DNA from: Proteromonas lacertae
Lineage: Eukaryota
NCBI GenBank assembly: GCA_002245135.1
Contig: NGBS01000920.1
Coordinates: 1-52,519 of the forward strand
Reading direction: 5' to 3'
DNA: 52,519 nucleotides
The position numbers were made by a program, and so were the translations under genes. Positions within the stretch are counted from its first letter, which is position 1; each line of letters begins with the position of its first letter. Shown here one piece after another: positions 18,678 to 50,551 of this stretch. The notes under the pieces are model-generated. The model was not told the DNA's origin and made no database searches. It worked only from the letters and a program-made list of their open reading frames with translations.

Positions 18678-18714
18678 TATATAATTAATAACTATAAGAA
18701 TTTATTGAATATCA

Positions 18715-18734
18715 ATTCATTTGATAAATTCTTA
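18715..18734 (+). promoter_or_regulatory. Candidate promoter motif ATTCATTTGATAAATTCTTA
   Basis: Identical 20-mer at 19535-19554 and an 18/20 copy at 46232-46251. Each starts 33-56 nt upstream of a + strand ATG. Confidence 0.55.
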
Positions 18735-18770
18735 ACGTTTTTTAATATATATATTTATGTTATTTAATTA

Positions 18771-19514
18771 ATGGGTAAGTTTAAAGATTGGTTAAAAAAA
18801 TCTAAAATTCTATCTAGCGCAGCTAGTTTAATACCTTTTGCTGGACCAGCTATTAGTAACAGTATAGAGAATATGGGATATGGTAAGAGAAGGCGTAGAG
18901 GTAGGGTTGCAAGACATAGAGTTACTAGAATGTCACAATTTACACCTGATGGTAGATTCTTAGGTGATACTTCATCTATGACTGGTGGTGGAACTGTTAA
19001 GTTTAGGACAAAATCTGGTAAAGTTGTTTCATTTCATACTAGAAAACGGAAGGGAGCTGGTTTAGGTAGTTTGTTTAAGAAAGGATGGAATAAAATAAGA
19101 AAAATAGCTACAAAAGACAATATTACAAGAGGTATTGAGAAAGCTAAAGAGATAAATAACACTTTAAAAGATAAGAAATATATTAGTAATATATCAGGTA
19201 AGGTAGGTGACATTGCAACAAAATTAGGTTTTAATAAAGTTGGTGATATAGCAAATAATATAAGTTCCACTGCTAGTAACTATGGTTATGGAAAACGTAG
19301 AAGACATAGAGGCGGTAAAAGATTTGGACAAAATGGTGGACTTAGATTACCAATGAATGGTGGTAGTAAAATACGTAGTATAGCTATTACTAAACCTCCT
19401 AGCAATAGGCCTATTTTAAATGGATTAGCTAAACCTTGTGGATTTAACCATAGAGGTTTATACAATCCACAAAACAGTTTACAAAGCTTTTTAGCTTACA
19501 AGTTAACAACATAA
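18771..19514 (+). CDS. Basic core/membrane-lytic precursor protein (PX/pVI/pVII-like), element A
   Basis: Repeated GYG-KRRR, MTGG and MNGG sites, plus the amphipathic helix KGAG-LGSLFKKGWNKIRKIA. Confidence 0.7.
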   Translation: MGKFKDWLKKSKILSSAASLIPFAGPAISNSIENMGYGKRRRRGRVARHRVTRMSQFTPDGRFLGDTSSMTGGGTVKFRTKSGKVVSFHTRKRKGAGLGSLFKKGWNKIRKIATKDNITRGIEKAKEINNTLKDKKYISNISGKVGDIATKLGFNKVGDIANNISSTASNYGYGKRRRHRGGKRFGQNGGLRLPMNGGSKIRSIAITKPPSNRPILNGLAKPCGFNHRGLYNPQNSLQSFLAYKLTT

Positions 19515-19584
19515 ACTTTGTTATTGATTTTATTATTCATTTGATAAATTCTTATTGTTTTTTTATATATTTAATAATAACATA

Positions 19585-27351: not shown

Positions 27352-27740
27352 ACGATAATAATGAAAGAAGGGGGGAAATGAGTACAATTTGAAACCCCTA
27401 TTTTTTTTGTATTTTTTGTATTGATTTCCCCCTATGTGTTTTTTGTCCGTTTCATTATCAAACCATTATTCAAGCTTACATTATTTTTCGCTTTTCTGTT
27501 TGAATTTAAACAAAAATAATTATTCCATTTGAATCCTCATCTTATGATGAATCTATTTATGTTGTTAGTTCAAATTATAGAAAGTGAATGACATATAATT
27601 TCAAAAAATAATTCAATAAAAACAATCTCAATAGGATGGTCAACACATGGTGTGATATGACACCATATAGTGACCATCCTATGTAATAAAAAAAAAAAAA
27701 TGGAGTTCAAGTCAAATCTCGAAATGCATCTATTTTTCTA
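27352..27740 (+). repeat. Left copy of imperfect inverted repeat, with 52-nt hairpin (27631-27682)
   Basis: ATAATAATGAAAGAA, CCCCTATGTGTTTTTTGTCCGTTTCA, the hairpin and TGGAGTTCAAGTCAAATCTCGAAATGCATCTATTTTTCTA all have reverse-complement counterparts, in mirrored order, at 43762-44133. Confidence 0.88.
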
Positions 27741-27851
27741 TTATTGATATTTCTTATAAGACTTGTTATAATGCTAATTAATTATGTAAATTATGAAAAC
27801 AACACTCCCACACAAACACAATATATCATTTGAACCAATTAGGACCAGAGA

Positions 27852-28653
27852 TTAATAATCATTTTGGTACTCTGGCTCCTCATCATCATCATCTACTATG
27901 AATTGTGAGAAGTTATTATCATCATCATCATCTTCCTCTGTAGTACTATCTTCTTGTTTTTGGTTTTTGGTTGAAATGTTTTTTTGATTTATTTTCTTTC
28001 TTTTGAATCTTGGAGCTTTAGATGTACTGCACTTTCTTTTTGTGGATACCACCTTTAACAACTTGTTGTTGTCATCATCATCATTATAATCATCATCATT
28101 CAGGTTATCAAACAACGATGCTATAGAGACTTTACTACTTACTATACTTTCAGCAGTACTTCTGTAAACTATATCTCCTTTCGAATTCTTGTTTTCTTCT
28201 TTTTCGCATTTTGCTAAATCGTTGTCACCGAAATGTATGATATACATACAAGTCAGTTCCACCATGTCCTCCATTGCATGGTCAAGCATACGATCATACT
28301 ATTGATTCAAAATTGAAATATATATTAATTGGATATACGATGCTTTTGTCCAGATCCTCTTTATACATGATATTACATAGCAGGACAGACATCAACACTC
28401 TGGACATTTTTAATCTTTCATGTCGATCATCAATCTTTTCAATTTCTGTGAATCTTTTGTACCATGTAGTGAAACGCCTTATACTGAAGCTACCATTCCA
28501 GCTATAGACATATAATAATATATTATACCTATATCGTTGCAAATCTTTCTCATGTTCTACAATCGTCTTAAAATTCTCACATAAAATTTTATAGACGCTC
28601 GGATTTGGATCATTGATGAAGCTGTTTTTGTATAGCAACTTCCAGTTGCTCAT
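27852..28653 (-). CDS. Spliced hypothetical protein (gene X, copy 1; 244 aa); exons 28653-28529, 28501-28339, 28298-27852
   Basis: GT-AG introns 28502-28528 (27 nt) and 28299-28338 (40 nt). Splicing joins ORFs 28294-28695 and 27852-28289 and gives colinear alignment with copy 2. Acidic/basic (NLS-like) tail. Confidence 0.85.
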
Positions 28654-28829
28654 AATAAGTGAATTGAAAGGAAAATAACGTTGAACAATGAACAAATGTT
28701 ATATGTATATATGAAACGGATATATATATTTTTTAATGTTGTTATAAAGACATATAACTCTATTAATTTAGATAATAATCATAATGAAATGAATTTCATT
28801 ATTACTTTTGTTTTTTGTTTTTGGACCAT

Positions 28830-30116
28830 ATGTTTAGCACTAATAGTTACGATCCACATTTATACAGCTCATATAGCAACCAGAACCCATATCCTGTCAA
28901 ACCGTTACCTACAAATGGTAACCTATCACTTGCAACATATATTAACCATGGAGCACCGAATATTACACATCCAACAAGAGAGGCTTCGTATGAAGACCAA
29001 ATGTCAAACCAAATTGCCCAATATCGATCACGCTTAGATGAACTATATAAAAAATATTATTACCTTAATGAAAATGAATTTGTCAAAATGACACAACATT
29101 TGTCTAGTATGAATGATATAGCTCCACCACCAGATGTAGTACGTGAATACTTAAGGAGACAACCTGGAAAACAAATTGTTGATTTCAAATATAAAAAAAA
29201 TAATCCATTCGCAACTATCAAGAAGCCTGGGTACTTCCAAATGGATATTGTGTTTTTCTTACCTGATATGGAACATTTGTATTTTATCGAAATGAATTCA
29301 AGAAAAGTATGGGCAATATTTATGCCTAATAAATATGGTGATATTACATTGGATGCATTTCAGAAGTGGTATTATGAAACAGATGCCTATGGAAACAAAA
29401 CACATAAAAATGTGGTAAGTATCCTATCAGAAGCTGATGCTAGTTTTTCAAATATCAAGAAGTTATGTGATGCTGAAGGAATATCATATTTTCAAAAAGA
29501 TGGTTCAGAGCATAAAATAGAGTCATTATTGGATAGATCAGTGAGTGTGATAAAAAGATTGTTGTACAAACACTTGGTGGATCTGGGATATGATGCACCT
29601 ACATATATGGCAGATATTGATCACAATGATAAGCATATTATACCAGATATGAATTATAAATTAAAACTCGATAGTATAATACAGGAAGTGATAGATGACT
29701 ATAACAACAAGCCATTACCAGGAATTAAAGGATATACACCAAATGAAGTATTCCATAGTCCAGAATTACAAAAACAAATATTACAAAAATCAATTAACTA
29801 CAACTTAAAGAATTATGAAAAATTGGACCATACTGGTCAAAATTTCGAAGTAGGTGATTTGGTGAGATTCAAAGAGAGAAGATGTAAAATGGATAAGAAC
29901 ATATACTGGTCAGACAATGTATATAAGATAATCAAGAAAAATCGATATTCATACAATTTAGGTGATATCAATGGGAATGACATTCAAGGTTTTTAATTAA
30001 TTCGATTCAAACACTATGAGTTGCAGTTAGTGAGAAAAGATGATGCACTAACCACATGGTTTAGAAAAATACTGGAGAGACCCAAGAGAAAGAAGGGAGA
30101 CAAATCAATATTGTAA
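28830..30116 (+). CDS. Polinton-type retroviral-like integrase with atypical catalytic residues; in-frame TAA at 29994-29996 near the C-terminus
   Basis: YFQMDIVF, LYFIEMNSRKVWAIFMPNK, YNNKPLPGIKGYTPNEV, FEVGDLVRF, WSDNVYKI. After the TAA the frame continues RFKHYELQLV. Confidence 0.85.
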
Positions 30117-30363
30117 CGAATAAATTTTTATTATGCTATATATTGTATATGTTGTTTTTTATTATTGGGTATTGGATAGACTAGCTACGATGAGGGCTGC
30201 GTTTCTAATTTATAATTATTTATTTATTTATTAAATTAATTTCACAAGGAATTTATGGAAGTGTAATAATTTCTACTTGGATGTGTTGTTTAATATTGCG
30301 CCATTGAAATTCGGCTTGAATCATCCTGGCATGGTATATCTAAATGCCCTTTTTTTATTTAAT

Positions 30364-30459
30364 TGGGATCTGATAGACTGTGCAAGGAAAAAAGAGTCAT
30401 GCAGCTGGCATTAGTGGTTCGATTCCTAGCACAGACTATTAGTAATCCCATTCTTTTTT
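30364..30459 (+). ncRNA. Candidate Pol III hairpin RNA (adenovirus VA-RNA-like)
   Basis: Long terminal stem 30364-30389 / 30423-30450. Perfect B box GGTTCGATTCC at 30416-30426 (about +53). T6 at 30454-30459. No tRNA cloverleaf evident. Confidence 0.55.
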
Positions 30460-30495
30460 AATTTCTTTTTTTTAAAAATATTTTATTTTTTATAT

Positions 30496-30903
30496 ATGCT
30501 TACACTACCACCACAGATTGAATATAAATTACCAGAACTTGAATCCAAGGTAACAAAGAAATATCATTTAAGTGGTCCAGACAGATACTTGGATTTGTAT
30601 AGCCTACAATTCCTTATATTTTTTTATCATCGAAAACCTATATATCAATGGTATTTTGAGTTAACACACAAAATGATTAACATGATCATGAGTCAACTTT
30701 TGATATTAGTGTTTGTAGGTCCTTGTGACTTAGGAGATAGAGATAGACCCAAAGTTACATACACACCAACAATGAAAAAAGTAATCATTAGAATGCCACA
30801 AAGACACTTTAATGGTAAGATGCCAATATTCTTCAAATGTACTCATATGGATAGAGAGATGATAGAATATATTGAAACTCATACAATATTTCACCACACA
30901 TAA
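30496..30903 (+). CDS. Hypothetical protein
   Basis: 135-aa ATG ORF, convergent with the protease; no recognised motif. Confidence 0.5.
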   Translation: MLTLPPQIEYKLPELESKVTKKYHLSGPDRYLDLYSLQFLIFFYHRKPIYQWYFELTHKMINMIMSQLLILVFVGPCDLGDRDRPKVTYTPTMKKVIIRMPQRHFNGKMPIFFKCTHMDREMIEYIETHTIFHHT

Positions 30904-30949
30904 AAAAAACAGAAAAAAAAATAATTAAGTAATAATTTTATATTATATA

Positions 30950-31633
30950 TTATATTAATCCAAATTGTTTTTTCATTAACCTAATTTTTGCTTCACCTAC
31001 TATTGTATTATAGTCAGTAGCCTTTTTGAAACTACACTGATCTCTTAAAATATTTTTCAAAAAATTAATAGCAAAAAAACCACAGTTGGCAGTATTTGAA
31101 TTTTGATTCTGTACTCCATTGATTTTAAGTTCATACTTTTCATTATGATACTTCTTTAATTTTTTCAAATTTTTTTTAAATTCTTCCAAGTGTTGAGGAT
31201 CTTCACCAAATGAATCATAGTACAGGAATTGCTTCTTGATATTGTCAACTACTAAAGCCACCCAATGACCTATAGAATCAAGGCTAGCTTGTGTGGTGAG
31301 TGTATTGATTATGATTCCCCATTGATTCTTCTTTTTGGGTATAGGAAGTACAAGCTCGTCCCAGCAGAACACTCCCATGAACTTTCCATGGAAATTATTG
31401 AACTCATTTTTCACAATTAACTCTATATCAAAGTTCGATAAGGCATCTGAAGTGATACTGTTATACAAAACTTTCCTACGTGAAATTAATTTCTTTACTT
31501 TTTTATTATTTCCATTACCTATTCCAAAGTAACTCATAGCTTCACTGAGTTGTTTTCCTTTATCATCTTTAGCATCAGTTGACGGCTGTACTTTAATATC
31601 TGTTTCTGCTTTAGGAGTAATCAATTTATTCAA
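30950..31633 (-). CDS. Adenain-like maturation cysteine protease, element B
   Basis: IGHWVAL, YYDSFG, VQNQNSNTANCGFFAINFL: His/Asp/Cys catalytic residues plus oxyanion Gln. Confidence 0.93.
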   Translation of the reverse strand: MNKLITPKAETDIKVQPSTDAKDDKGKQLSEAMSYFGIGNGNNKKVKKLISRRKVLYNSITSDALSNFDIELIVKNEFNNFHGKFMGVFCWDELVLPIPKKKNQWGIIINTLTTQASLDSIGHWVALVVDNIKKQFLYYDSFGEDPQHLEEFKKNLKKLKKYHNEKYELKINGVQNQNSNTANCGFFAINFLKNILRDQCSFKKATDYNTIVGEAKIRLMKKQFGLI

Positions 31634-31667
31634 CTTCTACTATTATATATATAAATTAACATGAATT

Positions 31668-32201
31668 TTATACCATTTGCTGCATTTGTGACATCTTGAT
31701 TTGGTTAATTGGATTACTCATATACTCACCCATCTGCATCCTAGTCTTTGCACTTGCTTGAGCCATTTCATTGTAATTAGGTCTATTCATATTCACATAC
31801 ATGTTAGGACCAAACAAATGCTGATCATCAATCTCTCTTAAACTATTAGCAAGCGGTATAGCCATTGCATTACCTTCATGTAATGATGTAGATAACATAG
31901 AATCGATTGCATTCTGTCTCTCTAAAAATTTTTGCTCATCATTCAATTTACGAATATCACCTTCATTAGGAGGAGTGTCTTTAGAATTCAATTTAGTAAT
32001 CTCATCTTTTATTTCATTTAAACGACTGTTTCTCATATCCACTAAATCTTTCGCATTTTCTCTATAAAAATTATTATATAAACTCTGATAATATTTGTCA
32101 TGTCCTTTATATCCTTCACCTCTCCGTATCTTCTTCCTTTTGCCTTTACCTCTCATCCGAGCAAACACAGCAAGTAGTATTTTCTTATTTAGTTTTTTCA
32201 T
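31668..32201 (-). CDS. Basic-N-terminus virion-module protein
   Basis: MRGKGKRKKIRRGEG N-terminus followed by a coiled coil. Positional and weak sequence equivalent of 20108+ and 51136+. Confidence 0.65.
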   Translation of the reverse strand: MKKLNKKILLAVFARMRGKGKRKKIRRGEGYKGHDKYYQSLYNNFYRENAKDLVDMRNSRLNEIKDEITKLNSKDTPPNEGDIRKLNDEQKFLERQNAIDSMLSTSLHEGNAMAIPLANSLREIDDQHLFGPNMYVNMNRPNYNEMAQASAKTRMQMGEYMSNPINQIKMSQMQQMV

Positions 32202-32269
32202 AATAACTTAATAGAAAATAAAAAACAATTTAATTATAATAATAATGTGTAATATAAGTATTATTAATA

Positions 32270-32884
32270 TTATTGAACATAAACAGGCTCGATAGGCTCG
32301 CCTTGTATTTCTCTACCTGCAATATCATTACCGAATGGTTTATCTTCTTCTGGTTCTGGTTCTTTTACTTTCTCTATTTTCTCTTTCTTAGGATTTGAAC
32401 TCTTTTCTAATTTCTTCATATATTTGCCTAATTGATCTCTAGTTTCTTTCAAAGCTATTTGTAATTCAGCTTTTGTCATACGACTAGGAGGAGGTAATGA
32501 TGAGTCCCTATCCTTTTTGCTATTTTTTCTACCACCACCACGTTTGGACTTTGGCTCGTCTAAAGCATTTGATTTTTGTTTCTTGCTAGATCTTCTTTTG
32601 GATCTCTCATGTGATCTTGATCTTGATCTGGATTTATGGGAGTGTTTTTTACCTTTTTTTGAATTTTTATGAGATGATGATCCATCATTCTGTAATATGT
32701 TGTATATATCCTTTGGAGAGAATTGTGATAGTAATTCATTGATCATAGCATCGCTTGGTTCAGCTTCTGCGATTTTTGGTTTGGACATCTTGGAATCATT
32801 TTCATTTATTGACTCTACTTCACTATCAGACTCATCAGTAGAACTATCATCACTCACATATTCAGTTGATTCAGTATCACTCAT
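32270..32884 (-). CDS. Acidic/RS-rich basic virion-module protein
   Basis: Acidic N-terminus, SRSRSRS tract, C-terminal EPVYVQ resembling MPVYF (A) and APFY (C). Confidence 0.7.
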   Translation of the reverse strand: MSDTESTEYVSDDSSTDESDSEVESINENDSKMSKPKIAEAEPSDAMINELLSQFSPKDIYNILQNDGSSSHKNSKKGKKHSHKSRSRSRSHERSKRRSSKKQKSNALDEPKSKRGGGRKNSKKDRDSSLPPPSRMTKAELQIALKETRDQLGKYMKKLEKSSNPKKEKIEKVKEPEPEEDKPFGNDIAGREIQGEPIEPVYVQ

Positions 32885-32976
32885 TATTTATTTCTATGTT
32901 ATGAAAAATAAAATTAACAAAAAAACAATGAAAATAATAATAATATAAGTATTATTAGCATTATTAAAAGTCAAGC

Positions 32977-33270
32977 TTACATTCGAGCCACCTTTGATTT
33001 TAAATATGCGTTCAATAATGCTTGTTGATTACTCCCACCTCCATTGAATGGTAATCTACCTCTTCCTGACCTACGTCTTCTACGACCAAATCCCATTGTT
33101 GATAATCCATCTGCGATATCGTTCTTTCCAAATTCCCTAGCTATTTTGGATGCTATTTTATGATCCTTTGCCCAGTTAAATGCTTTGGAACCCCAATTTT
33201 TTAACTTACCCCAAAATGAACCACCCCTTCTTCCATAAACGCATCTACGTCTTCTACCACCTTTTGGCAT
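32977..33270 (-). CDS. Small basic core protein with pVI-like amphipathic helix
   Basis: RRGG-SFWGKLKNWGSKAFNWAK; MGFG-RRRRR. Confidence 0.7.
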   Translation of the reverse strand: MPKGGRRRRCVYGRRGGSFWGKLKNWGSKAFNWAKDHKIASKIAREFGKNDIADGLSTMGFGRRRRRSGRGRLPFNGGGSNQQALLNAYLKSKVARM

Positions 33271-33329
33271 TATGTTATTTCGAATGAAAATAAAGAAATA
33301 CGATTAAAATAGAAAAAAATAAAATTAGA

Positions 33330-33817
33330 CTAGAAAACTCTAATCTTATTGTCAATATATCGATTATCGAGACTATTACTACTTTTACGTCTTTTACCAG
33401 AACCAGTCTTTTTCTTTGCTAACAAAAATTTCGGTATAGTGCTTGGACCACCTAACATCTTTACAGCAAATGGATTAGCCATTCCACCATTTTTTAAATA
33501 GGGCATACTGCCTGACCACCACTAATTACACTTTTTACTTCCTTTGGTATCTTTGCATTCTTAACTTTATTCCAAAAAGAACCACCACTTATACCACCAT
33601 CATAATTCCATTCTGCTTGTCCACCTCTTCTTCTACGTTTTCTACCATATCCTACATTGGATACAACATTACCTAAGGCTGGACCTACACCTGGGATTAA
33701 ACTAGCTGCTGTTGATAAAATTTTTGTTTTCTTAAAGAAATTCTTTACTCCATCCCAGAACTTGCCTTTACCTATGATATACTTACGATATTTCGCTTTT
33801 GAACTTCTTTTAACCAT
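33330..33817 (-). pseudogene. Second core/pVI-like precursor of B, frameshifted near 33500-33515
   Basis: IIGKG-KFWDGVKNFFKKTKILSTAASLIPGVGPAL closely matches the N-terminus of 18771. The shifted frame continues NGGMANPFAVKMLGG...LDNRYIDNKIRVF* to 33330. Confidence 0.65.
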
Positions 33818-33855
33818 AATTTGAGATAATTATATTTTTGAGTGATAATATAGTC

Positions 33856-33877
33856 AATAATATCAATATTGTCATTA
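33856..33877. promoter_or_regulatory. Candidate bidirectional promoter motif of element B
   Basis: AATAATATCAATATTGTCATTA has a 21/22 copy at 40306-40327. Both lie between divergent start codons and contain the palindrome CAATATTG. Confidence 0.5.
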
Positions 33878-33891
33878 TAGCCGTTTTTAAT

Positions 33892-34251
33892 ATGTCAGCT
33901 GGTCCAATACCTCAAATAACTTTTAATAGTGGTGTTGCATATCAACAAGATGGTCAACACCCTCAATATCTACCACAACAACAACCGAATCAACAATCGC
34001 AACAATCGGTACAAAATGATCAACAAACTCAAGTACTGAAAACACTCGAAACATTACCTCCAGAGGCACAACAGATGTTAAAGAGTATTAATCCATGGAC
34101 ATTCAAGGAAGCACAAGCTATATTAAATAAATTGGCAGATGAAGTGTTAATGGAGAGAAATCAAACATCAATACAACAACAACAGCCATACCCAGTACAG
34201 AATTTAACTCCTGTGCAATATGCTAGACAAAATATGACATTAATAGGTTAA
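33892..34251 (+). CDS. Gln-rich hypothetical protein
   Basis: ATG at 33892 within ORF 33838-34251; Q/P-rich. Confidence 0.6.
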   Translation: MSAGPIPQITFNSGVAYQQDGQHPQYLPQQQPNQQSQQSVQNDQQTQVLKTLETLPPEAQQMLKSINPWTFKEAQAILNKLADEVLMERNQTSIQQQQPYPVQNLTPVQYARQNMTLIG

Positions 34252-34310
34252 TAATTAACATAATATCAATATTTGAAATATATTCGTTTCATTTTATTAT
34301 TTTTTGTATA

Positions 34311-34778
34311 TTGTGTTCTATGGATTCAAACAACCATAATACCATACACGTTATAGGCATAATGGGTAAATCAAATGATCAAGACCAAAAGAAAGAAAAT
34401 TTAGAAGATAAGAAAATGCGATTCAGTCAAAAAAGAAAAAGAGAGAATGATTATTTAGATAATGTGTATAAGTACTTATATGGAGAAGCAGAATGTACTG
34501 ACGATGAATCAGATGACTATGATCCTGAAGATGATCCAAATGCAAGTGATGTTGATAGTAATGGTAATTTAAAGGATTTCATTGCATATAGTGAAGATGA
34601 AAATGACGCTGAATCGAATATGGAGCAGGATGATTATGATAGCGATAATGATCAATGGTATGATGTATATGATATTCCTGAAATTGTGAATGACAATGAT
34701 AATAAGATACATATCATCAAGAGAAAATTATTAAGTACTATATCTGAATCATTAGATGAATTAGTACCACAAAAATAA
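34311..34778 (+). CDS. Acidic hypothetical protein
   Basis: D/E-rich ORF with KRKR and DSNGNLKDFI. Confidence 0.6.
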   Translation: MCSMDSNNHNTIHVIGIMGKSNDQDQKKENLEDKKMRFSQKRKRENDYLDNVYKYLYGEAECTDDESDDYDPEDDPNASDVDSNGNLKDFIAYSEDENDAESNMEQDDYDSDNDQWYDVYDIPEIVNDNDNKIHIIKRKLLSTISESLDELVPQK

Positions 34779-34910
34779 CATAAGCATTTGGTCAAGCCAA
34801 ACATGCAATGTGACGATTCAAAAAACCTTGATAAAGAAGAAGATTTAGAAGATCTTTAAGTGTTAAGTGATTAAACGTAATTACTTTATTTTTTTTAATT
34901 AATTATTTTT

Positions 34911-35555
34911 TTGCTTATTATGAACACTATACCACCATTACAACATACTGACTCACCTAAAAGTATCGTTAAACCTCTAGATTTCACTGAATTAGAAAGA
35001 GCATTGCCGATTGAAGATGCTGTAAAACCAGTATGTCTATTCAATGAGAAAGATGTAAAGAAAATGGATGTGCATACATATAAAGCTAATTTAGATGTTT
35101 TGGAGCATAGTGAGAGAGCAATATGTGATTGTGAGGGACATGCTGGTTTAGCATTACCAATTGGTGAAGAGAGTTTACCACGTGTGAAATTCAATATAAC
35201 TCAAATTCAGCATATTTTAGAAATTTTTAAAGAATCTCTAACTCATTATAGAATTCAAACAAGATTTTTTAATCTCAGTGTAGAAGATTGTATAGAGGTG
35301 AGTAATAGAGTAGAAGATGCTATAAAATTATGTTTGAAAGATACTGTTCCGTACTGTGCAGTAAAAGTTGGAGTTCATAATGTGTTAATATGCCTATGGG
35401 AACGTATACGTAATAATGAAAAAGAAGGAAATCACTATGAGTTGGTGCATTTTGAAAGGGAGTTAGATGAGTATGAGCGGTTAATATGGAACGTGTATCA
35501 TTGTCTTTGTAAATTTGTGGGAGTCATATCAAAAAGAGAATACTATAGACCGTAA
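34911..35555 (+). CDS. Hypothetical globular protein
   Basis: 214-aa ORF of complex composition; no family recognised. Confidence 0.65.
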   Translation: MLIMNTIPPLQHTDSPKSIVKPLDFTELERALPIEDAVKPVCLFNEKDVKKMDVHTYKANLDVLEHSERAICDCEGHAGLALPIGEESLPRVKFNITQIQHILEIFKESLTHYRIQTRFFNLSVEDCIEVSNRVEDAIKLCLKDTVPYCAVKVGVHNVLICLWERIRNNEKEGNHYELVHFERELDEYERLIWNVYHCLCKFVGVISKREYYRP

Positions 35556-35650
35556 TTAATTAATTAATTAATGGTTACTATTATTATAATAATTATAATT
35601 ACTTCTCATTATTTCTTCCAAGTTATTTATTTTATGAGTGTCAGTGTGAT

Positions 35651-35950
35651 TTGAGAATTAGACAGATAACTGTATTAGATAAGAAGGATAAAGAAAAATA
35701 CACTATTATCCCAAAATTTGAGGCGCATAGCAGTATCAAGAAATTTGAGCAAAAACTTGAGAAGGAGAAGGAGGATGATGAGGATCAGTGTGCTGAGAAT
35801 CAGGATGTAGATGACATAGATTTAGAGAATATGTATACACAACCTGCAGATTATGATATTATTCCAGTACCAACAACACCTGCTCCGATGAAAAGAAGAA
35901 CTGAGAGTGATAATCAAAACCAACAATACAAGAGAAACAAGAAGAATTAA
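35651..35950 (+). CDS. Small acidic hypothetical protein
   Basis: 99-aa ORF; start uncertain. Confidence 0.45.
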   Translation: MRIRQITVLDKKDKEKYTIIPKFEAHSSIKKFEQKLEKEKEDDEDQCAENQDVDDIDLENMYTQPADYDIIPVPTTPAPMKRRTESDNQNQQYKRNKKN

Positions 35951-35957
35951 TTATTTT

Positions 35958-36824
35958 TTAAAAATCAAATGCATCATCTTTATTAAATATAACATTATTA
36001 CCATATGGAAATATTATTTTTTGTGGGATTAGAATACAATTACCTTCAAAGTTATCCACATTATGTTCTGTAGTAGGATTTTTCATACTAAAACTACATA
36101 TATCACGAGTAATTTCAAAAAAGCATACTTGATGATGCCCACTTAATGACTCAAAAAATATATCTATTCTTGGTACATTATTTATAAAACTTAAATATTT
36201 GTTTAAAAATTTTTCTACATCTGGAGTTAAGATTGAATTAATTATTAGTTCGCTTGTTATTATTTTAACAGGATTTAGTATTTCTATTTGCAAATATGTT
36301 TGAAAAGCTGCATATCTTACAAAGCAATAACAGTTTGGTAAAACTTGTCTTGCTTGAACAATTTCTAATTGACCATCTACAGATTTTAATATCATGTTAT
36401 TTTCACCCATAGAACTCCATTTTATACGATTCTCCATTTTCCATGAACTATCTTGATATTCACTTCGATATCCTATATAGTACATTATACTATTGACATT
36501 ATAAGCAATTGAATTAGCATCACCATAAATTGTAGAATATAAAATAGATAACATATCATGTATGCTCTTTTCCCAGCTCTCTAATTTGGTCTTTCCAATG
36601 ACATTCACAATTCCATCAATTTTCTCACTAGTTGCACTATCAATACCACCACCTGATCCAGATGATCCTCCTGTACCACTATTCTTGATATCGACCAACA
36701 TTTCTCTAATCGATTTAGCATCTCCAACTTTTTCTCCCAAATTGCTTGTAATCGATGTCAGTGCCCTCGTGACAGGTGTTAGATCTGTTGATACAGCTTG
36801 TTTTTTAATAGGACGACCAAACAT
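35958..36824 (-). CDS. Putative fiber/spike-like virion protein, element B
   Basis: Likely ATG at 36824 (MFGRP). Helical stalk, GTGGSSGSGGG hinge, beta-rich C-terminus. Directly downstream of the ATPase. Confidence 0.5.
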   Translation of the reverse strand: MFGRPIKKQAVSTDLTPVTRALTSITSNLGEKVGDAKSIREMLVDIKNSGTGGSSGSGGGIDSATSEKIDGIVNVIGKTKLESWEKSIHDMLSILYSTIYGDANSIAYNVNSIMYYIGYRSEYQDSSWKMENRIKWSSMGENNMILKSVDGQLEIVQARQVLPNCYCFVRYAAFQTYLQIEILNPVKIITSELIINSILTPDVEKFLNKYLSFINNVPRIDIFFESLSGHHQVCFFEITRDICSFSMKNPTTEHNVDNFEGNCILIPQKIIFPYGNNVIFNKDDAFDF

Positions 36825-36879
36825 AAAATATAGCAAAATAAACAAAAAAAATATATTAGTGACAATATGGGGATTATTA

Positions 36880-37737
36880 TTATTCCGAATCGCTGGGATA
36901 ACTTGATGAATCAGTGGACTCATCATCGCTGCTATAGGAAATGAGGTGATCATATTTATTATTGTGATTATATCTATTATTACTATTATCTCTAATTCTA
37001 CTATCAAAATTCACTCTAAATTCATGATTATATAAATCGATATATAAAAATGAGTGATTACTCTGTTTGGTTGCATAATCATAATATGATTTGAAAACAT
37101 CGAAATCAATCCATATATCCAAACTTGCATACAAATTTCTTAAATTAGCCATACTCAGGTTTTTGAATACCAAACAGTAATCAAGCTGTAAACGAACAGA
37201 GGGAGTAATGTCAGTGACATATTGACTTGATATAATTACTTTTGACTTGTAATGACGGTTTGACTTAAGTAATTTAGAAACGGATTTATTTCTTAAATCA
37301 AATGATATATCATCGAATATAAATATATTCTCTGGGTAATCATAATTATCTTTGTCTATATCTTTGATATTATCTAATACTGCATCCAATATATTCACTC
37401 TATCTTCATTCACTACTGAATCATAGCAATGGTACTCAATTTGGTTATACTTGAGCATATCAGTGATTTTCTCATATATAATATCCTTGGATATAGTTGC
37501 AACGAAAAAATACACTACTTGGTCATATCCCTTTTTTAACAAGTGTTGGATCATATTAAATATAAGTGTAGTCTTACCACTGTTTTTCTTAGCTAAAATA
37601 AATATGTTGCAGAAAGGCTCCTGAAAATAGTCATATCCAAGGACACTATCTTTGGAGCGTTTTCCACATCCTTTGACTACTGTCTCAACAGGATTTATGA
37701 CTATGTTGTTTATTTTTTCTAAATTAACTTTACTCAT
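36880..37737 (-). CDS. A32-like DNA packaging ATPase, element B
   Basis: AKKNSGKTT, IFIFDD, SNRHYK, ISSQY. Clear paralogue of 12063-12824. Confidence 0.93.
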   Translation of the reverse strand: MSKVNLEKINNIVINPVETVVKGCGKRSKDSVLGYDYFQEPFCNIFILAKKNSGKTTLIFNMIQHLLKKGYDQVVYFFVATISKDIIYEKITDMLKYNQIEYHCYDSVVNEDRVNILDAVLDNIKDIDKDNYDYPENIFIFDDISFDLRNKSVSKLLKSNRHYKSKVIISSQYVTDITPSVRLQLDYCLVFKNLSMANLRNLYASLDIWIDFDVFKSYYDYATKQSNHSFLYIDLYNHEFRVNFDSRIRDNSNNRYNHNNKYDHLISYSSDDESTDSSSYPSDSE

Positions 37738-37799
37738 AACAAAAATAACAAAAACATAATTATAAGAAATATAACCGTTATCGATATTATGATTATTTT

Positions 37800-39281
37800 T
37801 TAAACTACACTTACAATACCACTTCCATTAATAGTGACCATACGTCCAGTGATGATATAGAAACGATGAGTGATATCATTATTAGTAAAGTCATTCTTAC
37901 CAGGTGTTGAAAATTCAAAGGTTATTTTCAAATCAGTAGCCAAAGGTCTACCTGCCTGGTTCTTAATATTGTCCAAATCCTTAGAGCCAAAATTCAATAT
38001 CTCAAAGAACTTGTCATTGAACTTCTTATCTTTTCTGAATATATCAAACCATGAGTCTTGGAAATATTCACGGACAGTCATATAGCTATCATAATATTGC
38101 ATAAGTGTATAATCTGGCTGATAGACAAAGTCATTGATCATCCATCTGAATTGTGCATTTTCAGGTACATGTGCATATCTTTTTAATGATTCTATCCATG
38201 GCCTATAGATAATGTAACGAACAAATGGTCCATTGGAACTATTCAATGTGAATGAATAATTGAATATGCCAGATCCACCTGATGGTACAACAATTTGATG
38301 GCATCTGAAATCATTGAATTGAATAGGTTTTGATAAACAATATTGTTTGGTATTATTGTTGCATTGAGTATCCTTGTTGATATAAGCATAAAATTTAAAA
38401 TTCTTAAATGTCATATTTTTAATACCACCATTCCTATCCCATGCTATAACATTATTTAAATCTTCAAAGCCATTTTCATCAATACAATATTCGATTGGTG
38501 TATATGATTTCAAATTTCCATAATTTGCTTTAGTTTGGAATCGAATGCATATATACATTCTCTCTCCAAAGAATACATCGCTCTTTAATGCAGCAAATGT
38601 ATTGTAAAATTTACCTAACTGTAATTTGAAATGTAATGTCTTTTTATTCTTATATTGAATAGCACTAGTTACTTTTTCATCACTTTCATTATAAATCTCT
38701 ACAGTATTAGTAAATTCATCATCTTCCGTTTCTTTATCCATTTTCCATTTATTAACATCTTGAATAAGATAACTGTGTTCATCGTTACTCCAATCTAATT
38801 GTATTCCATCATAGTAATTGTCTTGATAGAATATATCGCATCTCTTTCTAACTAATTCATCCATAAATACACGATATGGTTCATACGAATCATCAAGCTT
38901 GACCAGATCTGTTCCAGTCTGGTTACAAATTCTAAAAGAGGCCAAGCCAAACCCTTCTTTAATTCCTCCAATTGTACTTGGATATAAATCATCATCTTTA
39001 TTTATAAGTTTCTTACTTAAATCTGCTCTAACAGCACCTACTTCTGAACCTTTTGCTACTGGTTCTGTTTCTACATCTATATCGAATTGGATATATGACT
39101 TAGCGAGATTAATGATATTATCTCCACTTATCTCCCATCTAATCTCTTCTGTATACGTGTTATCACTTAGAGTATATTCTGATGTTGATCCCATCGGAGT
39201 CAATCTCACATAATTATAGAAGGGTAGCATCACAGGGACATCTACACCATGTTTCTGTTCTTTTGGAATAGATAAAGCCAT
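37800..39281 (-). CDS. Major capsid protein (double jelly-roll expected), element B, intact 493 aa
   Basis: IRWEISGDNIINLAKSYIQFDI resembles the Polinton MCP N-terminal strand motif. Size, beta-rich composition and position between ATPase and minor capsid agree. Confidence 0.85.
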   Translation of the reverse strand: MALSIPKEQKHGVDVPVMLPFYNYVRLTPMGSTSEYTLSDNTYTEEIRWEISGDNIINLAKSYIQFDIDVETEPVAKGSEVGAVRADLSKKLINKDDDLYPSTIGGIKEGFGLASFRICNQTGTDLVKLDDSYEPYRVFMDELVRKRCDIFYQDNYYDGIQLDWSNDEHSYLIQDVNKWKMDKETEDDEFTNTVEIYNESDEKVTSAIQYKNKKTLHFKLQLGKFYNTFAALKSDVFFGERMYICIRFQTKANYGNLKSYTPIEYCIDENGFEDLNNVIAWDRNGGIKNMTFKNFKFYAYINKDTQCNNNTKQYCLSKPIQFNDFRCHQIVVPSGGSGIFNYSFTLNSSNGPFVRYIIYRPWIESLKRYAHVPENAQFRWMINDFVYQPDYTLMQYYDSYMTVREYFQDSWFDIFRKDKKFNDKFFEILNFGSKDLDNIKNQAGRPLATDLKITFEFSTPGKNDFTNNDITHRFYIITGRMVTINGSGIVSVV

Positions 39282-39313
39282 TAGAAAACAAAAAGAATAA
39301 AGAAATATAAAAA

Positions 39314-40273
39314 TTAGACTTTAAATACAACAATATCTAAATTAAACTCAATATTATCAAGATTAAGTTCATAGCCATTTTGTTGAGTAATCTGAATAGT
39401 GATCATACCATTGTTATAGGTATTATTAAATCTCTTCGATGTATTCAATATGTCATTATTCTGATATGTAATAAATGGTAACTCAGGATTTGAAACGGGT
39501 ATATTTTCTAATACATTTGAATCCTGCATAATATTCACTATGTCTAATCTAATGGATATAGAATTAACCCATATCAAAGAAGGACGAAATGGTAATTGAG
39601 TAAATGGGAATGGCTTAACCATAATTTCTTGTTGATTCTCTGGTTCTTCAGATGGAATATATTCTTTAAAACAACACCAGTAATTGTTTTTGGGTATACC
39701 TAATATTTTGTAACTAAGATCTTTGGTGATGATCTCTAATTTTTCTATCCAATATACTGGGTCCTTTTCATAGTATATAATATTCATATCATTAGCTACC
39801 TCAATATGATATGTTTGATTATCATCGAAATTGTCTATACGAAATAAATCTCCTTTTCCTTGTATAATAGACACATGTGAACCTTCAGTATTATATGAAG
39901 TATCATTTATTCCAAAAACATCATATGTCATATTTTTTACTAAATTATTGATCATACTTAATATCTGAGTTTCATCATAGAATCCTTCTGGTATTTTGAG
40001 GTGTTTTATGATGTTTGGATACTTTGGTGTATCTACTTGAACATCATGTCTCCATCCCAATGTGAATACTAGTGAAAACTCATCATTTGTTTCTTCCTGT
40101 ATAGTTGGGAATGAATTGGGTATAACAGCATGTAATAAGCTGACATGAGTATAATCATCATCGAATGATTGCAATTTTAATGTCTTCTTATACTTGTTTC
40201 CTCCGCCCATGGAATCAGATAATACAATCATATCAGAATTTAAGTAGTACACACGATGATTCGAAACTAACAT
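39314..40273 (-). CDS. Minor capsid (penton-like) protein, element B
   Basis: VSLLHAVIPNSF, LKIPEGFY, VLENIPV, ITIQITQQNGYELNLDN. Confidence 0.82.
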   Translation of the reverse strand: MLVSNHRVYYLNSDMIVLSDSMGGGNKYKKTLKLQSFDDDYTHVSLLHAVIPNSFPTIQEETNDEFSLVFTLGWRHDVQVDTPKYPNIIKHLKIPEGFYDETQILSMINNLVKNMTYDVFGINDTSYNTEGSHVSIIQGKGDLFRIDNFDDNQTYHIEVANDMNIIYYEKDPVYWIEKLEIITKDLSYKILGIPKNNYWCCFKEYIPSEEPENQQEIMVKPFPFTQLPFRPSLIWVNSISIRLDIVNIMQDSNVLENIPVSNPELPFITYQNNDILNTSKRFNNTYNNGMITIQITQQNGYELNLDNIEFNLDIVVFKV

Positions 40274-40358
40274 AAGATAAAATCTATTTTGAAAATAAAT
40301 TCGTTAATAATGTCAATATTGTCATTATTAGTATTAATTACACTTTTATTTTTTAAAA

Positions 40359-40964
40359 ATGAATAACGATCAGGAGCATAAATATCGTACTGTGCCTTAT
40401 AACTTTTGGAACTCTGATAAACAAATACTCATTAATTGCTTTAGAAAGGATGGCAAAATGAGGGCGCCAACTAAATCGAAATTATGGAATTTGATATGTG
40501 GTGATAAAAAGGAATTAACTTATAGTGAGATCAGATATATACTCAAATACGTCGATGAACAGTATAGATTAGACTTGGAATATAGATTCAAAAATGGATG
40601 TTGGTGGGATGAGAGTAAAGAGAAATTAATTCAAAGATTAGGTATTTCTGATGTAGATGAGACTGTGCGCATTACACCTAATATGTTCCTTGAGTGTGTT
40701 AACAAGATTAAGGAGAAAAGAAACCCATCCTTTGAAAAAACTCATCAATTATTAGAAAGTATTATTATGATGAATCATGAAGCTAATATATTACCTCCTC
40801 CTCCTCCTCCTAATGATAGTAGTAATAAAGAAATAGAAGAAATACAAGTCAAGCTTGAAAATGACAATGACAATGTCAATCTCACAGATTATGACTTATC
40901 TCCAATATCACCAAGATCCATTAAGGATGAATATATTAATAATAACCAATGTCTTGTAAGTTAG
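40359..40964 (+). CDS. Hypothetical protein
   Basis: 201-aa ATG ORF with globular N-terminus and poly-Pro linker. Confidence 0.65.
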   Translation: MNNDQEHKYRTVPYNFWNSDKQILINCFRKDGKMRAPTKSKLWNLICGDKKELTYSEIRYILKYVDEQYRLDLEYRFKNGCWWDESKEKLIQRLGISDVDETVRITPNMFLECVNKIKEKRNPSFEKTHQLLESIIMMNHEANILPPPPPPNDSSNKEIEEIQVKLENDNDNVNLTDYDLSPISPRSIKDEYINNNQCLVS

Positions 40965-41055
40965 TTTATTGATAATAAATACATTACTTTGATTAATTTT
41001 GTTTTCTTATATAAGATTCTCATAAACACACATTGACTTTGATGTAATAACTGTT

Positions 41056-41268
41056 TTGCTTTCAGTTCTCGTATTTGTATCGTATATGATAGCTTTGGCT
41101 CTTTTCAAATACTTAAAGGCACACAATTGTATTCCAAACAATACAGACATAGAAGAACTTAGAAATAATATAGATGCCATGATGAATAAAGGGTTAGAAC
41201 ATGATAAGACACTTAAGGATATTCAGTCTCTTATTGAAATCACTAAACAAAGGAAAATGACTATTTAA
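41056..41268 (+). CDS. Small protein with hydrophobic N-terminus and coiled coil
   Basis: 70-aa ORF; start uncertain. Confidence 0.4.
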   Translation: MLSVLVFVSYMIALALFKYLKAHNCIPNNTDIEELRNNIDAMMNKGLEHDKTLKDIQSLIEITKQRKMTI

Positions 41269-41328
41269 TTATTTTTTAATTTTTATATTATATTATTATA
41301 TTATGTTGTTTTTATTTTTGGTTAAACT

Positions 41329-41430
41329 TGTATCTTACAACTGGCCCAAGTTGTAAGATACATCACAATTCAAGTTACAACTGGCGCCAGTTGTAACTTA
41401 TATTACAATTCAAGTTGCAAAGTGGCGGCC
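41329..41430. repeat. Array of palindromic units with 40-bp period
   Basis: 14-bp perfect stem 41329-41342 / 41349-41362. Perfect 28-bp palindrome 41372-41399. Degenerate third unit from ~41412. Confidence 0.9.
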
Positions 41431-41504
41431 GGATATAGCAATACCAAACACCAAAAACAAACACACATAACATTACATAAAAAAAGAATATATATAGAAT
41501 TACT

Positions 41505-41876
41505 TTAATTATCCATATTAGGAACTGGAATACCATACTGATAATGCCTGCCATTATGCACAACAATACGATGTGGATCATTCTTTGGCGCGGCTCGTGG
41601 ACCGGCTCGTCTTGGTTTACGTTTTGCTCTATCTTTACTTCCTTTTGGTCTTCCTCTTTGTTTAGGTGGATTAGCAGCTAATAATCGTTCATACATTTTC
41701 ATTAATTGTCTATATTGTAATTTAACTTTTGTTTTGTTTTGTAGTGCATTCTTTACTTTGTCTCTATACAAATCATAGCTCTTTCTCCATTTACTCCTGT
41801 TAACTGATTTAGGAATATATGTATTCCAGTCTTTACTAATTTTAAACCCTTTTGGCCATCCTTCATAATAAGACAT
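41505..41876 (-). CDS. Basic AT-hook DNA-binding protein
   Basis: PKQRGRPKGSK AT-hook followed by KRKPRR. Confidence 0.65.
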   Translation of the reverse strand: MSYYEGWPKGFKISKDWNTYIPKSVNRSKWRKSYDLYRDKVKNALQNKTKVKLQYRQLMKMYERLLAANPPKQRGRPKGSKDRAKRKPRRAGPRAAPKNDPHRIVVHNGRHYQYGIPVPNMDN

Positions 41877-41981
41877 GTTGTGATTTTTTATAATTGATAT
41901 TATTTAAAATATAGTAACTATTAATAGTATGTTTATCAAACAAAAACAAACATATATAATAATAATAGAATTTTTAAGTAT

Positions 41982-42428
41982 TTAATCAGAGTCACTACTA
42001 CTACTACTACTAATTCCATCAGCAACATTTCTATCAACTGGATGTATGTGATAAAAATTCCCTCCATTCCATTGATAACTCATATGATGAAAAACATATT
42101 TTTTAAATTTTTGAGGAATACAATCACCATCTGCATACTCATGTTCTCCATTTCTTAATTTTCTATTCATTACTAATATTGAAGCTCTTCTGTCATACCC
42201 ATAGGTTTTGAGGTTTATCATTAATTGATCACCATGATGTCTATAATCACCTAGTACTTCTGGATCATTTCTATTAGTTCTGAGTGAACCACATATAAAC
42301 ACCTTTACTTTATTTCTTTTTAATATTTTCATTGTTTTAATTGGAAATTGAATGACCCATCTATGTGCTCTATTGTCTCTATATCTATGAATGTAAAAAG
42401 CATATTCACCGTTAGGTTGTCTAAGCAC
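41982..42428 (-). CDS. Hypothetical His/Arg-rich protein
   Basis: 148-aa ORF; 5' end probably frameshifted. Confidence 0.5.
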   Translation of the reverse strand: MLRQPNGEYAFYIHRYRDNRAHRWVIQFPIKTMKILKRNKVKVFICGSLRTNRNDPEVLGDYRHHGDQLMINLKTYGYDRRASILVMNRKLRNGEHEYADGDCIPQKFKKYVFHHMSYQWNGGNFYHIHPVDRNVADGISSSSSSDSD

Positions 42429-42863
42429 ATATTATATGTTAAATGGTCAGGCATATTCTTTGTATTTTTTGCTATTATATATATTATTAAATTTTTATGG
42501 GTCTAATCAATAAAGTTATTGTTTGTTTAGTAATACAAATGTTTGAGGTTTGTTAAAAAAATAATATCTCACGATCCATTGACATAATGAATAATCTGAT
42601 GTGTTTCTTATTATATGGCATATTATGAGCAATCGATTGATATAGTTAGATTTCATATATGTTTCATAATCAAAGATGATTTAGATTATTGCCTGAAATG
42701 AGATATTGATATAATTGAGATGGGTATATACCCTAGTAAGTATATATAATTTATAGTTAGCTAAAGTCAATTTGTTTTGTAACAAGAGTACAAAATTTTA
42801 ATGTATTGATCAAGCTATAAAGTTTGACATTTTTCTATTTGATTTAAGTTTTTTGCAGTACAT

Positions 42864-43497
42864 ATGAATAGTGAGATTAAAACAGTTACTGTCTACAAAA
42901 GACAGTTCAATTCAAGAGTAATGAACAATGTATTTCAAGTGCAATTATATAATTTGGAGATGATCTTTAAAGCAAGGAATAAGCTAAGTCGTTATAGGTA
43001 TATTTTATATCTATATATTTTATAGATATAATGGAAAGTTTTTATGCTCAAGTTTAAAAGATTATGTTGAAAGATTTAGAAGACTTCCCTTAAAATTGAC
43101 AAGAAAATCACAGGTTGATGAATACAAGAAGCTTTTAAGCATAATTATGTTCAATTGTCACTATTACCCTAAATCTAAAAAATCATTTGTATATTTATAT
43201 ATCTATATATTTATATATTATAAATAGGTTGATAGAGCATTAGATTACTTTATTTACGATCTACTCCATGAATTAAATATATCTTCTGTAGAATTTGGAG
43301 ATGATGATTATCCATCAAACAGTATAAGTGAATATGAAGATGATAATGGAAACACTAAAGTTAATTTTATTTCTGGTGAAGGTATCAAAACAGTTGTTGA
43401 AGTAGTTGTAAAAGATTTAATAGACAATGTTTTGAAAAAGTTCAAGAAGCCAAGAAAACTTTATGACGACATAGAAGTATTTGACATTGATGAATAG
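42864..43497 (+). CDS. Spliced hypothetical protein (gene X, copy 2; 188 aa); exons 42864-42997, 43026-43188, 43228-43497
   Basis: Absent from the ORF track. GT-AG introns 42998-43025 (28 nt) and 43189-43227 (39 nt) restore one uninterrupted frame homologous to copy 1. Confidence 0.88.
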
Positions 43498-43761
43498 GAC
43501 TGCTAATTAAGTCCTTAAAATTTATTATTATATAAATTTCAATAAAAAATATTATATATCAAAATAGTGTTTGTTTGGGGTTATTATAAGTGTATGTATA
43601 TATGCGTAGCTAATTATACGCAAAATTTGTTTTTATTAAATTAGATTTCGATTATAGTCAAACATAAATAATAAATACATAGAAAGATAGAGAAAAAGAA
43701 AACAAATCAATTGATATATTTATAATGTATTCAAACTAATCCTAGCTCTAACTATAACACT

Positions 43762-44133
43762 TAGAAAAATAGATGCGTTTCGAGATTTGACTTGAACTCC
43801 ATTTTTTTTTTGTTTTTTTTTATTACATAGGATGGTCACCATATGTTGTCATATCACACAGTATGGTGGCCATCCTATCTATCATTGTTTTTTGAAACTT
43901 TTTAAGAAAATTAAATTTCGATTATGATCAGAAAGTCAAACTAAGGGCATATATGAGCCCAGCATAAATAGAGAAATCGATTGATATATTTATTATGCAT
44001 TAAAAACGTTTCTAAGGGTGAAAAAACAATATGGGGTTATGTATATTATAAAACGGATATTTTTTTGAAACGGAAAAAACAATAGGGGGTTATGTATAGG
44101 TATACATAACCACCTTTCTTTCATTATTATGTT
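43762..44133 (-). repeat. Right copy of imperfect inverted repeat, with 52-nt hairpin (43827-43878)
   Basis: Reverse-complement similarity to 27352-27740. Its outer edge coincides with the truncation point of the element C MCP. Confidence 0.88.
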
Positions 44134-50077: not shown

Positions 50078-50152
50078 CCTAAAAATTGCAAGAAAATGAG
50101 AAATGAATTCATTTTTAATTTTCTATTCATATTTGAAAACAACCAATCACAT

Positions 50153-50551
50153 ATGAATGTTTTAGGTGGGCGTAAACGACGTTATCGAAGAGGTAGATCC
50201 GTTTCAAGAAGAAGAAGAGGACGAAGAGGAAGATCAAGTGGAAGGTACAAGTTTGGCTTGATGGGTAAACTTATAAGACATGAAGTACCGAATACAATGT
50301 TTCGAGGATTGAAGAAAGGAAGAGGAAAAGTAACTGAAGTTGCAAGCAAAGCTTTAGATATCATGAAGGTATTAGGGTTAGGAAAAGTTAGAGGAGGAAT
50401 AAGATTTGGCGTAAATGGAGGTAGAAGACGTAGAAGAAGAGGCAGTCGAGCAAGAAGACATAGACATCGTACATACTGTATAAAAGGAGGAGCACATACA
50501 AGTATTCCTATGAAATTAAATAATTTCCTTTTAAGTAAAATCTCATCTTAA
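50153..50551 (+). CDS. Arg-rich protamine-like core protein precursor, element C
   Basis: VLGG-RKRR, LGLG, VRGG, VNGG-RRRRRR, IKGG; C-terminal LNNFLLSKISS. Confidence 0.75.
   Translation: MNVLGGRKRRYRRGRSVSRRRRGRRGRSSGRYKFGLMGKLIRHEVPNTMFRGLKKGRGKVTEVASKALDIMKVLGLGKVRGGIRFGVNGGRRRRRRGSRARRHRHRTYCIKGGAHTSIPMKLNNFLLSKISS

Follow-up and report, generated by a model that had tools for sequence, protein, structure and literature searches.

The window, by which we mean the whole 52.5-kb stretch of DNA analyzed here, contains three Polinton-like modules plus two pPolB genes. In the middle module, integrase, protease, packaging ATPase, and capsid genes are all present, as in Polintons/Mavericks (for a general definition of Polintons, see the nematode Polinton preprint, 10.1101/2023.08.22.554363). 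The retroviral-type integrase gene (positions 28830 to 30117, plus strand) has a frame that is broken near 29994, and its C-terminal homology runs on in another frame up to 30117. Six homologues were found at 44 to 56%, and the integrase model matched HIV, visna, and foamy intasome chains (best E value, 4.7e-07). A spacer of 378 nt (30118 to 30495) separates this gene from a 135-amino-acid (aa) open reading frame (ORF) of unknown function (30496 to 30903, plus strand), for which we found no Pfam family and no paralogue in the window. The minus strand encodes an adenain/Ulp1-type maturation protease (30950 to 31537; PF02902, E value of 1.8e-08; PF00770, E value of 1.8e-05), the packaging ATPase (36880 to 37737; 49% identity to a Pox_A32-matching paralogue at 12063 to 12824), the major capsid protein (37800 to 39281), and a probable minor capsid protein (39314 to 40273) assigned from position alone. 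The Atlas neighbors of the major capsid protein, which had 17 relatives, were double-jelly-roll capsid clusters, under the tool's recognition mark; one of these clusters was mostly Parabasalia, which serves as a lead. The protein relatives of the module were Logan entries, and those of the integrase (44 to 56% identity) come from contigs 1.5 to 3.7 kb long.

The earlier note on this DNA had placed a hairpin gene in this region "inside element B." The spacer does lie within a Polinton-like module, but the repeats that seem to bracket it (27419 to 27739 and 43763 to 44098) more likely belong to the elements on either side, as their ends. These inverted repeats are 69% alike and are best kept at a sharp inner edge (..CT at 27739 and AG.. 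at 43763). With AG...CT termini taken as element ends, the first repeat probably closes the left element, and the second probably opens the right one. Repeat comparison within the window found no ends (terminal inverted repeats [TIRs] or target site duplications) belonging to the middle module itself. Each of the two repeats contains a 52- to 58-nt palindrome approximately 55 nt inside the edge, with stems that differ yet are still paired. Both pPolB genes lie outside 27740 to 43762; the broken pPolB gene at 6324 to 8831 might be the polymerase of the middle module, split off by the left element.

The window also carries a HYDIN gene, confirmed by Atlas and PDB, and the host is thus a flagellate-capable eukaryote. 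This gene (about 2600 to 6200) is fragmented and has no clear introns. Next to it, the ORF at 5626 to 6324 starts with a pPolB motif segment that is fused in frame to a HYDIN fragment, which is either a deletion junction or an assembly join. An insert of ∼1.07 kb (8730 to 9815), with inverted ends and GGGACA-type subterminal repeats, breaks the start of the first pPolB gene and is DNA-transposon-like, and a second, different integrase-like reading frame, broken and on the minus strand, occupies positions 1 to 800. Small basic Arg/Gly-rich proteins with GG motifs, which are probable protease-cut core proteins, are encoded at 32977 to 33817, 18771 to 19514, and 50096 to 50551; the segments 33494 to 33817 and 18771 to 19514 are 55% alike across 38 residues. 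In the left element, where the protease and core genes diverge, an A/T-rich imperfect palindrome (18678 to 18751) separates the two; a 39-nt part of it recurs at 19535 to 19573. At 41329 to 41399, two adjoining near-perfect palindromes (34 and 28 nt; z of about −5.9 on both strands) fill part of a spacer between convergent genes.

Two hairpin units behind the integrase gene

The feature described in the earlier note is real and larger than first reported, since the 378-nt spacer between the integrase gene and the 135-aa ORF holds two hairpin units. The hairpin of the first reading (here, unit 2) has a longer twin directly upstream (unit 1), which was absent from that reading and was found by folding the spacer. 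No ORF of at least 80 aa crosses 30118 to 30495, and five of the six frames are repeatedly stopped; one plus-strand frame is open for about 80 codons, over unit 1 only. A coding explanation of the spacer was rejected on these grounds.

Unit 2 (30365 to 30459, plus strand; predicted RNA, ∼93 nt) consists of a terminal stem (30364 to 30389 paired with 30423 to 30450), a small apical stem, TTC, and T6. The pairing of the terminal stem is exactly as first claimed, with 23 Watson-Crick pairs, 1 G-T pair, 2 mismatches (both A-A), and a 2-nt bulge, and it encloses an interior of 33 nt. RNA folding, proposed earlier as a check, gave −35.7 kcal/mol (z, −5.11; 0 of 200 shuffles equal), and in a scan of all 52.5 kb in steps of 20, this was the 100-nt segment with the lowest energy. 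Because the minus strand folds too (−31.3; z, −4.74), folding does not fix the strand for unit 2 alone. With DNA parameters, the unit reached only −17.5.

A consensus B box, GGTTCGATTCC, lies within unit 2 (30416 to 30426, plus strand), 60 nt beyond the unit 1 terminator. Its distance from the 5′ end, first given as about 53 nt, is +53 counted from T30364 (+52 in unit 2). It is the sole GGTTCGANNCC in the window, with 0.04 expected from base composition; the looser pattern GGTTCRANNCC occurs twice in the window, the second time at 11490 within an ORF. The T run that was said to follow the stem immediately is present as T6 at 30454 to 30459, but TTC intervenes, so that the run begins 3 nt past the stem. 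A T6 within 3 nt has a background of 1.4% of intergenic positions. T8 (30466 to 30473) follows 6 nt on, and the two runs together (30454 to 30473, plus strand) make a candidate Pol III terminator and back-up; the 135-aa ORF starts 37 nt past T6. The A box is as weak as described, with no candidate near +8 to +20 among the top 8 scores for the consensus used here. The best A-box score (7 of 8 positions) overlaps the B box of unit 2 and, because of this overlap, cannot serve alongside it. A collapsed-tRNA origin, suggested by the A-box-like 12-mer that overlaps the B box, was rejected; its 7 of 8 positions include two letters common with the B box and do not go beyond chance (estimate, about 0.08).

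Unit 1 (30167 to 30356, plus strand; predicted RNA, ∼187 nt) begins 50 nt past the end of the integrase gene. Its 39-nt 5′ arm (30167 to 30205) pairs with 30306 to 30349, and T7 (30350 to 30356) stands directly past the stem. The stem, aligned with transitions scored alike, comprises 28 Watson-Crick pairs, 8 G-T, 0 A-C, and 3 other oppositions, and it surrounds a 100-nt, A/U-rich interior (48% T) with eight TTT triplets. Folding gave a z of −3.80 on the plus strand versus −0.53 on the minus strand. This strand difference of 26 kcal/mol was matched by 1 of 200 dinucleotide shuffles, which themselves favor the plus strand by 14.6 kcal/mol. A worn B-box-like motif (30313 to 30323, plus strand), located roughly where unit 2 has its B box, keeps 6 of 9 fixed positions.

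The two units, which stand head to tail, share a layout: a YGGG start, TATAT at exactly −30, and a closing T6 or T7 run. In unit 1, the candidate TATA element is TATATAT (30137 to 30143, plus strand), and in unit 2, TATAT (30335 to 30339, plus strand) is embedded in the 3′ arm of unit 1. The counterpart of the latter site in the 3′ arm of unit 2 is lost, and no gene stands behind unit 2. TATAT at exactly −30 has a background of 0.8% per site; TATA anywhere between −32 and −28 is found at 7.8% of sites, the intergenic DNA being T-rich and TATA-rich. Positions −34 to −24 are identical in 9 of 11 places (P = 0.006 versus random intergenic pairs). The octamer GATAGACT stands in the box A position at +9 in unit 1 (30175 to 30182, plus strand) and at +8 in unit 2 (30372 to 30379, plus strand). 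It is not a consensus box A and agrees with at most 6 of 8 consensus positions. It occurs twice in the window, once per unit, with 1.8 occurrences expected anywhere.

When the arms were anchored at the stem base, the 5′ arms were more similar than expected (P = 0.0015, or 0.009 with GGG fixed), as were the 3′ arms (P = 0.004, or 0.027), these two similarities not being independent. An unanchored arm-by-arm scan found the similarity of the units no higher than the window background, and the joint scan matched the 5′ arm of unit 1 to the 3′ arm of unit 2, with no separate score for unit 1. Across 24 aligned stem columns, 14 have the same pair, 4 are changed on both sides, 2 are changed on a single side, and the other 4 form a pair in just one of the units; these counts come from two sequences, each folded alone. 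MAFFT misaligned the units owing to the 100-nt interior. The octamer is identical on the 5′ strand, and its pairing partners differ at 4 of 8 positions.

Both stems combined have 9 G-T and 0 A-C oppositions (0.002, one-sided, if equally likely), which points to a plus-strand RNA; the excess could also arise from a mutation bias (C to T and A to G) acting on one strand. Neither unit contains TTTT. Shuffling the interior of unit 1 gave this outcome in 2.2% of cases, and among 362 intergenic 100-mers as rich in T, 39 likewise lacked TTTT.

We ranked all 440 T5 or longer runs of both strands by the stem closing on the run, and the two units took ranks 2 and 4; ranks 1 and 3 went to hairpins in element ends. 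Similarly, among 1,776 pyrimidine-purine starts with TATA at −32 to −28, exactly the two units passed the full descriptor (stem energy of −20 or lower, with the 5′ end paired and T5 no more than 4 nt away), which was written after the units were seen. As a control, 120 viral loci with the motif TATA..GGG..GATAGAC, which are chance motif matches with full flanks for 80 of the 120, yielded no stem (−20 or better) with a T5 tail and no B box. Such units were not found in the two neighboring elements of the window, nor was there a further copy of either unit within its 52.5 kb. Two candidate equivalents in the left element (9965 to 10065 and 10195 to 10345) were dismissed, with z values of −0.9 and 0.0 on the plus strand.

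Searches for relatives and comparison with known RNAs

Searches for sister DNA returned no relative in viral contigs (integrase, protease, capsid, ATPase, and pPolB queries plus two DNA patterns), in metagenome contigs (integrase and capsid alignments), or in genome contigs (capsid and ATPase alignments), and blastn against phage records gave no match. The Pol III reading rests on one locus. An exact 19-nt match to unit 2 in L001 was rejected as a relative; it corresponds to the 3′ portion of a phage tRNA-like gene (L001, 1966 to 2042) that is otherwise unlike unit 2. The T arm and 3′ end of that gene share the 19 nt by chance, and its T stem looks imperfect. For the check advised earlier, the exclusion of a tRNA or SINE, ARAGORN gave 0 genes and Rfam no match. 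No Rfam family reached an E value of ≤1 over the window, and between 30100 and 30500 none came near its gathering score (the best, mir-1542, had 22.9 of 70 bits). A search of the window for targets of the units gave no near-complementary site; the best duplex reached −20 to −24, compared with −44 to −54 for a perfect match.

The earlier note knew of no description of such RNAs in Polintons, which agrees with our literature searches, in which none appeared among the papers listed. The adintovirus paper (PMC8502044) has 0 occurrences of the relevant terms. A survey of 8,300 Polinton-like genomes used Rfam and ARAGORN and, in the parts concerned with RNA genes, reports only those classes (PMC12220804); because of these tools, the survey would be blind to the present units.

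The adenovirus virus-associated (VA) RNAs I and II, named in the first reading, are among the closest comparisons. Like the present units, they are a tandem pair, likely from duplication, in a DNA virus lineage of the protein-primed type (PMC7589676, PMC6599070). They also share an internal B box (perfect in unit 2 and worn in unit 1), an oligo-U end, a G start, and 5′ and 3′ ends that are paired in a long imperfect terminal stem (PMC7589676). VA-II originated as a duplicate of VA-I and is better suited to Dicer and ADAR (PMC6599070), and the VA terminal stem is handled by Exportin-5 and Dicer (PMC7589676). In contrast, VA RNA is ∼160 nt long, versus ∼93 and ∼187 nt here (PMC7589676). The GGGU/ACCC tetrastem, the central pseudoknot, and the three domains of VA RNA are not found in the units; neither contains ACCC, and the fold of unit 2 is a terminal stem with a small apical stem, unlike the three-domain VA RNA. 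The units further differ in having no Rfam match, no consensus box A, and TATAT at −30. Thus, of the claim of a VA-RNA-like Pol III hairpin gene, the layout finds support and is strengthened by the twin unit, the TATAT at −30, the absence of internal TTTT, and the G-T bias, but the VA RNAs serve only as an analogy. The suggested antagonism of double-stranded RNA (dsRNA) sensing, read as a PKR-type role, has no basis because the host, given the HYDIN gene, is a flagellate eukaryote. To our knowledge, PKR is confined to vertebrates.

Other systems share different parts of the layout. EBER1 and EBER2 of Epstein-Barr virus (EBV) are likewise tandem Pol III RNAs with internal boxes and an upstream TATA-like element (PMC8223928, PMC4378190), although the units resemble them neither in sequence nor by Rfam, unit 2 is roughly half as long, and their other upstream elements were not seen here. 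In bovine leukemia virus (BLV), the ends of the pre-miRNAs are set by Pol III (PMC4378190); this is again an integrating element, and common to both are hairpins whose ends Pol III would set directly by where it starts and stops, leaving them fit for export and dicing. The difference is that the present units have larger interiors (33 and 100 nt) rather than a simple loop and that the carrier is a DNA virus-like element rather than a retrovirus. The Saccharomyces SNR6 gene combines a TATA element at −30 and T7 with a box A and, 202 bp away from the latter, a box B outside the gene (PMC9136082). Unit 1, in the arrangement that we infer, resembles SNR6 in three ways: TATA stands at −30, a T run separates it from the start, and a B box follows the terminator. 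However, SNR6 encodes U6 snRNA and has a working box A, whereas here the distant B box lies within a second gene.

Competing explanations

Both units could be miniature inverted-repeat transposable elements (MITEs) of Pangu-like PHIS transposons that landed in an A/T-rich spacer, with the stems being decayed TIRs and the B box and T runs being due to chance or carried along. Pangu elements have TIRs of 11 to 40 bp, usually starting with AG or GG, and 5′-ANT-3′ target duplications (PMC4482050). Unit 2, with its GG ends, 25-bp arms, and ANT flanks, fits this description and reads ATT|GGG...CCC|ATT, where the ATT at 30362 to 30364 and the ATT at 30450 to 30452 (together 30362 to 30452) would be a possible 3-bp target site duplication. 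Both units start with GGG and end with CCC, related families would likewise change on both arms, and the window has other inserted elements (8730 to 9815). The flanks of unit 1, however, are ATT and TTT, without a duplication, and ATT stands at 4.5 to 7.4% of positions by chance. Neutral decay of a DNA repeat should yield G-T and A-C alike, whereas the bias here is one-sided (9 versus 0), and a MITE would not be expected to have the promoter- and terminator-like signals seen, namely, a perfect B box, twin TATAT elements at −30, and no internal TTTT. No more copies exist in the 52.5 kb, and the Pangu elements are listed from plants, fungi, and animals (PMC4482050). We consider the transposon explanation, which the earlier note had itself raised and which is the main rival, unlikely. 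A role at the DNA level, in which the hairpins would arise in single strands displaced as the DNA is replicated or packaged, with the B box being a TFIIIC anchor or boundary without a transcript, seems very improbable to us. Unit 2 folds on both strands, its A box is weak, and the elements have other strong palindromes (27631 to 27682, 43824 to 43881, and 41329 to 41399; z of about −6 to −7). Yet those palindromes fold equally on both strands and have short loops, whereas unit 1 is one-sided, with 8 G-T oppositions and a 100-nt interior, and the DNA-parameter energy of unit 2 given above is weak.

Two further explanations concern other kinds of RNA. The hairpins might be structures of a Pol II transcript running on from the integrase gene, acting as a 3′-end signal, a stability element, or a pri-miRNA-like precursor. 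Unit 1 does lie on the same strand, 50 nt past the integrase stop, the G-T bias would suit any plus-strand RNA, and terminator hairpins are found on giant-virus, virophage, and transpoviron genes (PMC7031253). Against this, none of the 31 ORFs that we examined has a comparable stem within 70 nt past its stop (the best, −21.5, overlaps the next ORF, and the rest are −13.1 or weaker), so that no general hairpin rule applies. Nor would such a transcript account for the B box, the twin TATAT at −30, or the absence of TTTT, and we regard the Pol II explanation as improbable. Slightly more doubtful again is the idea that the element captured and duplicated a Pol III gene or SINE of its host (vault-, Y-, or 7SL-like) that does nothing for it. 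Like unit 2, vault RNA is about 95 nt long and has a terminal stem, a U tail, and a B box close to the 3′ end. Vault RNA is a cellular type 2 gene (PMC8223928), and Polinton-like viruses carry host-type tRNA, snRNA, and snoRNA genes (PMC12220804). Neither an Rfam family nor an ARAGORN gene was found for the units, though, and the strong differences between the two, both of which retain their stem and terminator, suggest that they are maintained within the element.

A putative Pol III hairpin-RNA pair

We best read the sequence as two Pol III genes, derived by duplication, for hairpin RNAs of about 187 and 93 nt, which would act on host silencing, and we give this full reading about an even chance. 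It appears fairly probable that at least unit 2 belongs to the element as a gene transcribed by Pol III. In such a pair, TFIIIC would bind the B box of unit 2, TFIIIB would be placed with the help of the −30 TATA element, and transcription would run from the first G to the T run in each unit. Unit 2 would use its TATA element, the weak box A region, and the internal B box. Unit 1 keeps only a worn B box (6 of 9) and would depend on its TATA element and on the B box of unit 2, which lies ∼240 bp downstream of the +9 motif and the start region (about +250) and 60 nt past the unit 1 terminator. The TATAT at −30 in both units may compensate for the weak box A.

With imperfect stems of 24 to 36 bp, paired 5′ ends, and short U tails, the predicted RNAs might be handled like pre-miRNAs or VA terminal stems, and they could soak up or feed Dicer/Argonaute-type proteins that would otherwise silence the element. 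Host small RNAs keep Polintons in check in at least one protist: in Trichomonas, they cover most Maverick genes, which are silent (PMC7845603). Because of this coverage, a decoy or guide role against silencing would be the likeliest use. Even supposing that the units are transcribed, however, the probability of such a role would hardly exceed one half.

The viral Pol III RNAs known so far come from few vertebrate viruses (PMC4378190), and the literature that we searched gave no description of a counter-measure RNA of Polintons against silencing. A broader proposition, which we offer as doubtful but possible, is that Polintons of a unicellular host have their own duplicated Pol III dsRNA-mimic RNAs, served by one shared B box, with which they would suppress or exploit RNA silencing; the VA-type strategy would then come from the ancestral Polinton stock of adenoviruses and be older than PKR. 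The twin layout predicts two starts, two stops, and one B box needed for both units. If real, such a pair of element-encoded hairpin RNAs would provide a testable handle on the dealings of Polintons with silencing and on the origin of VA-type RNAs.
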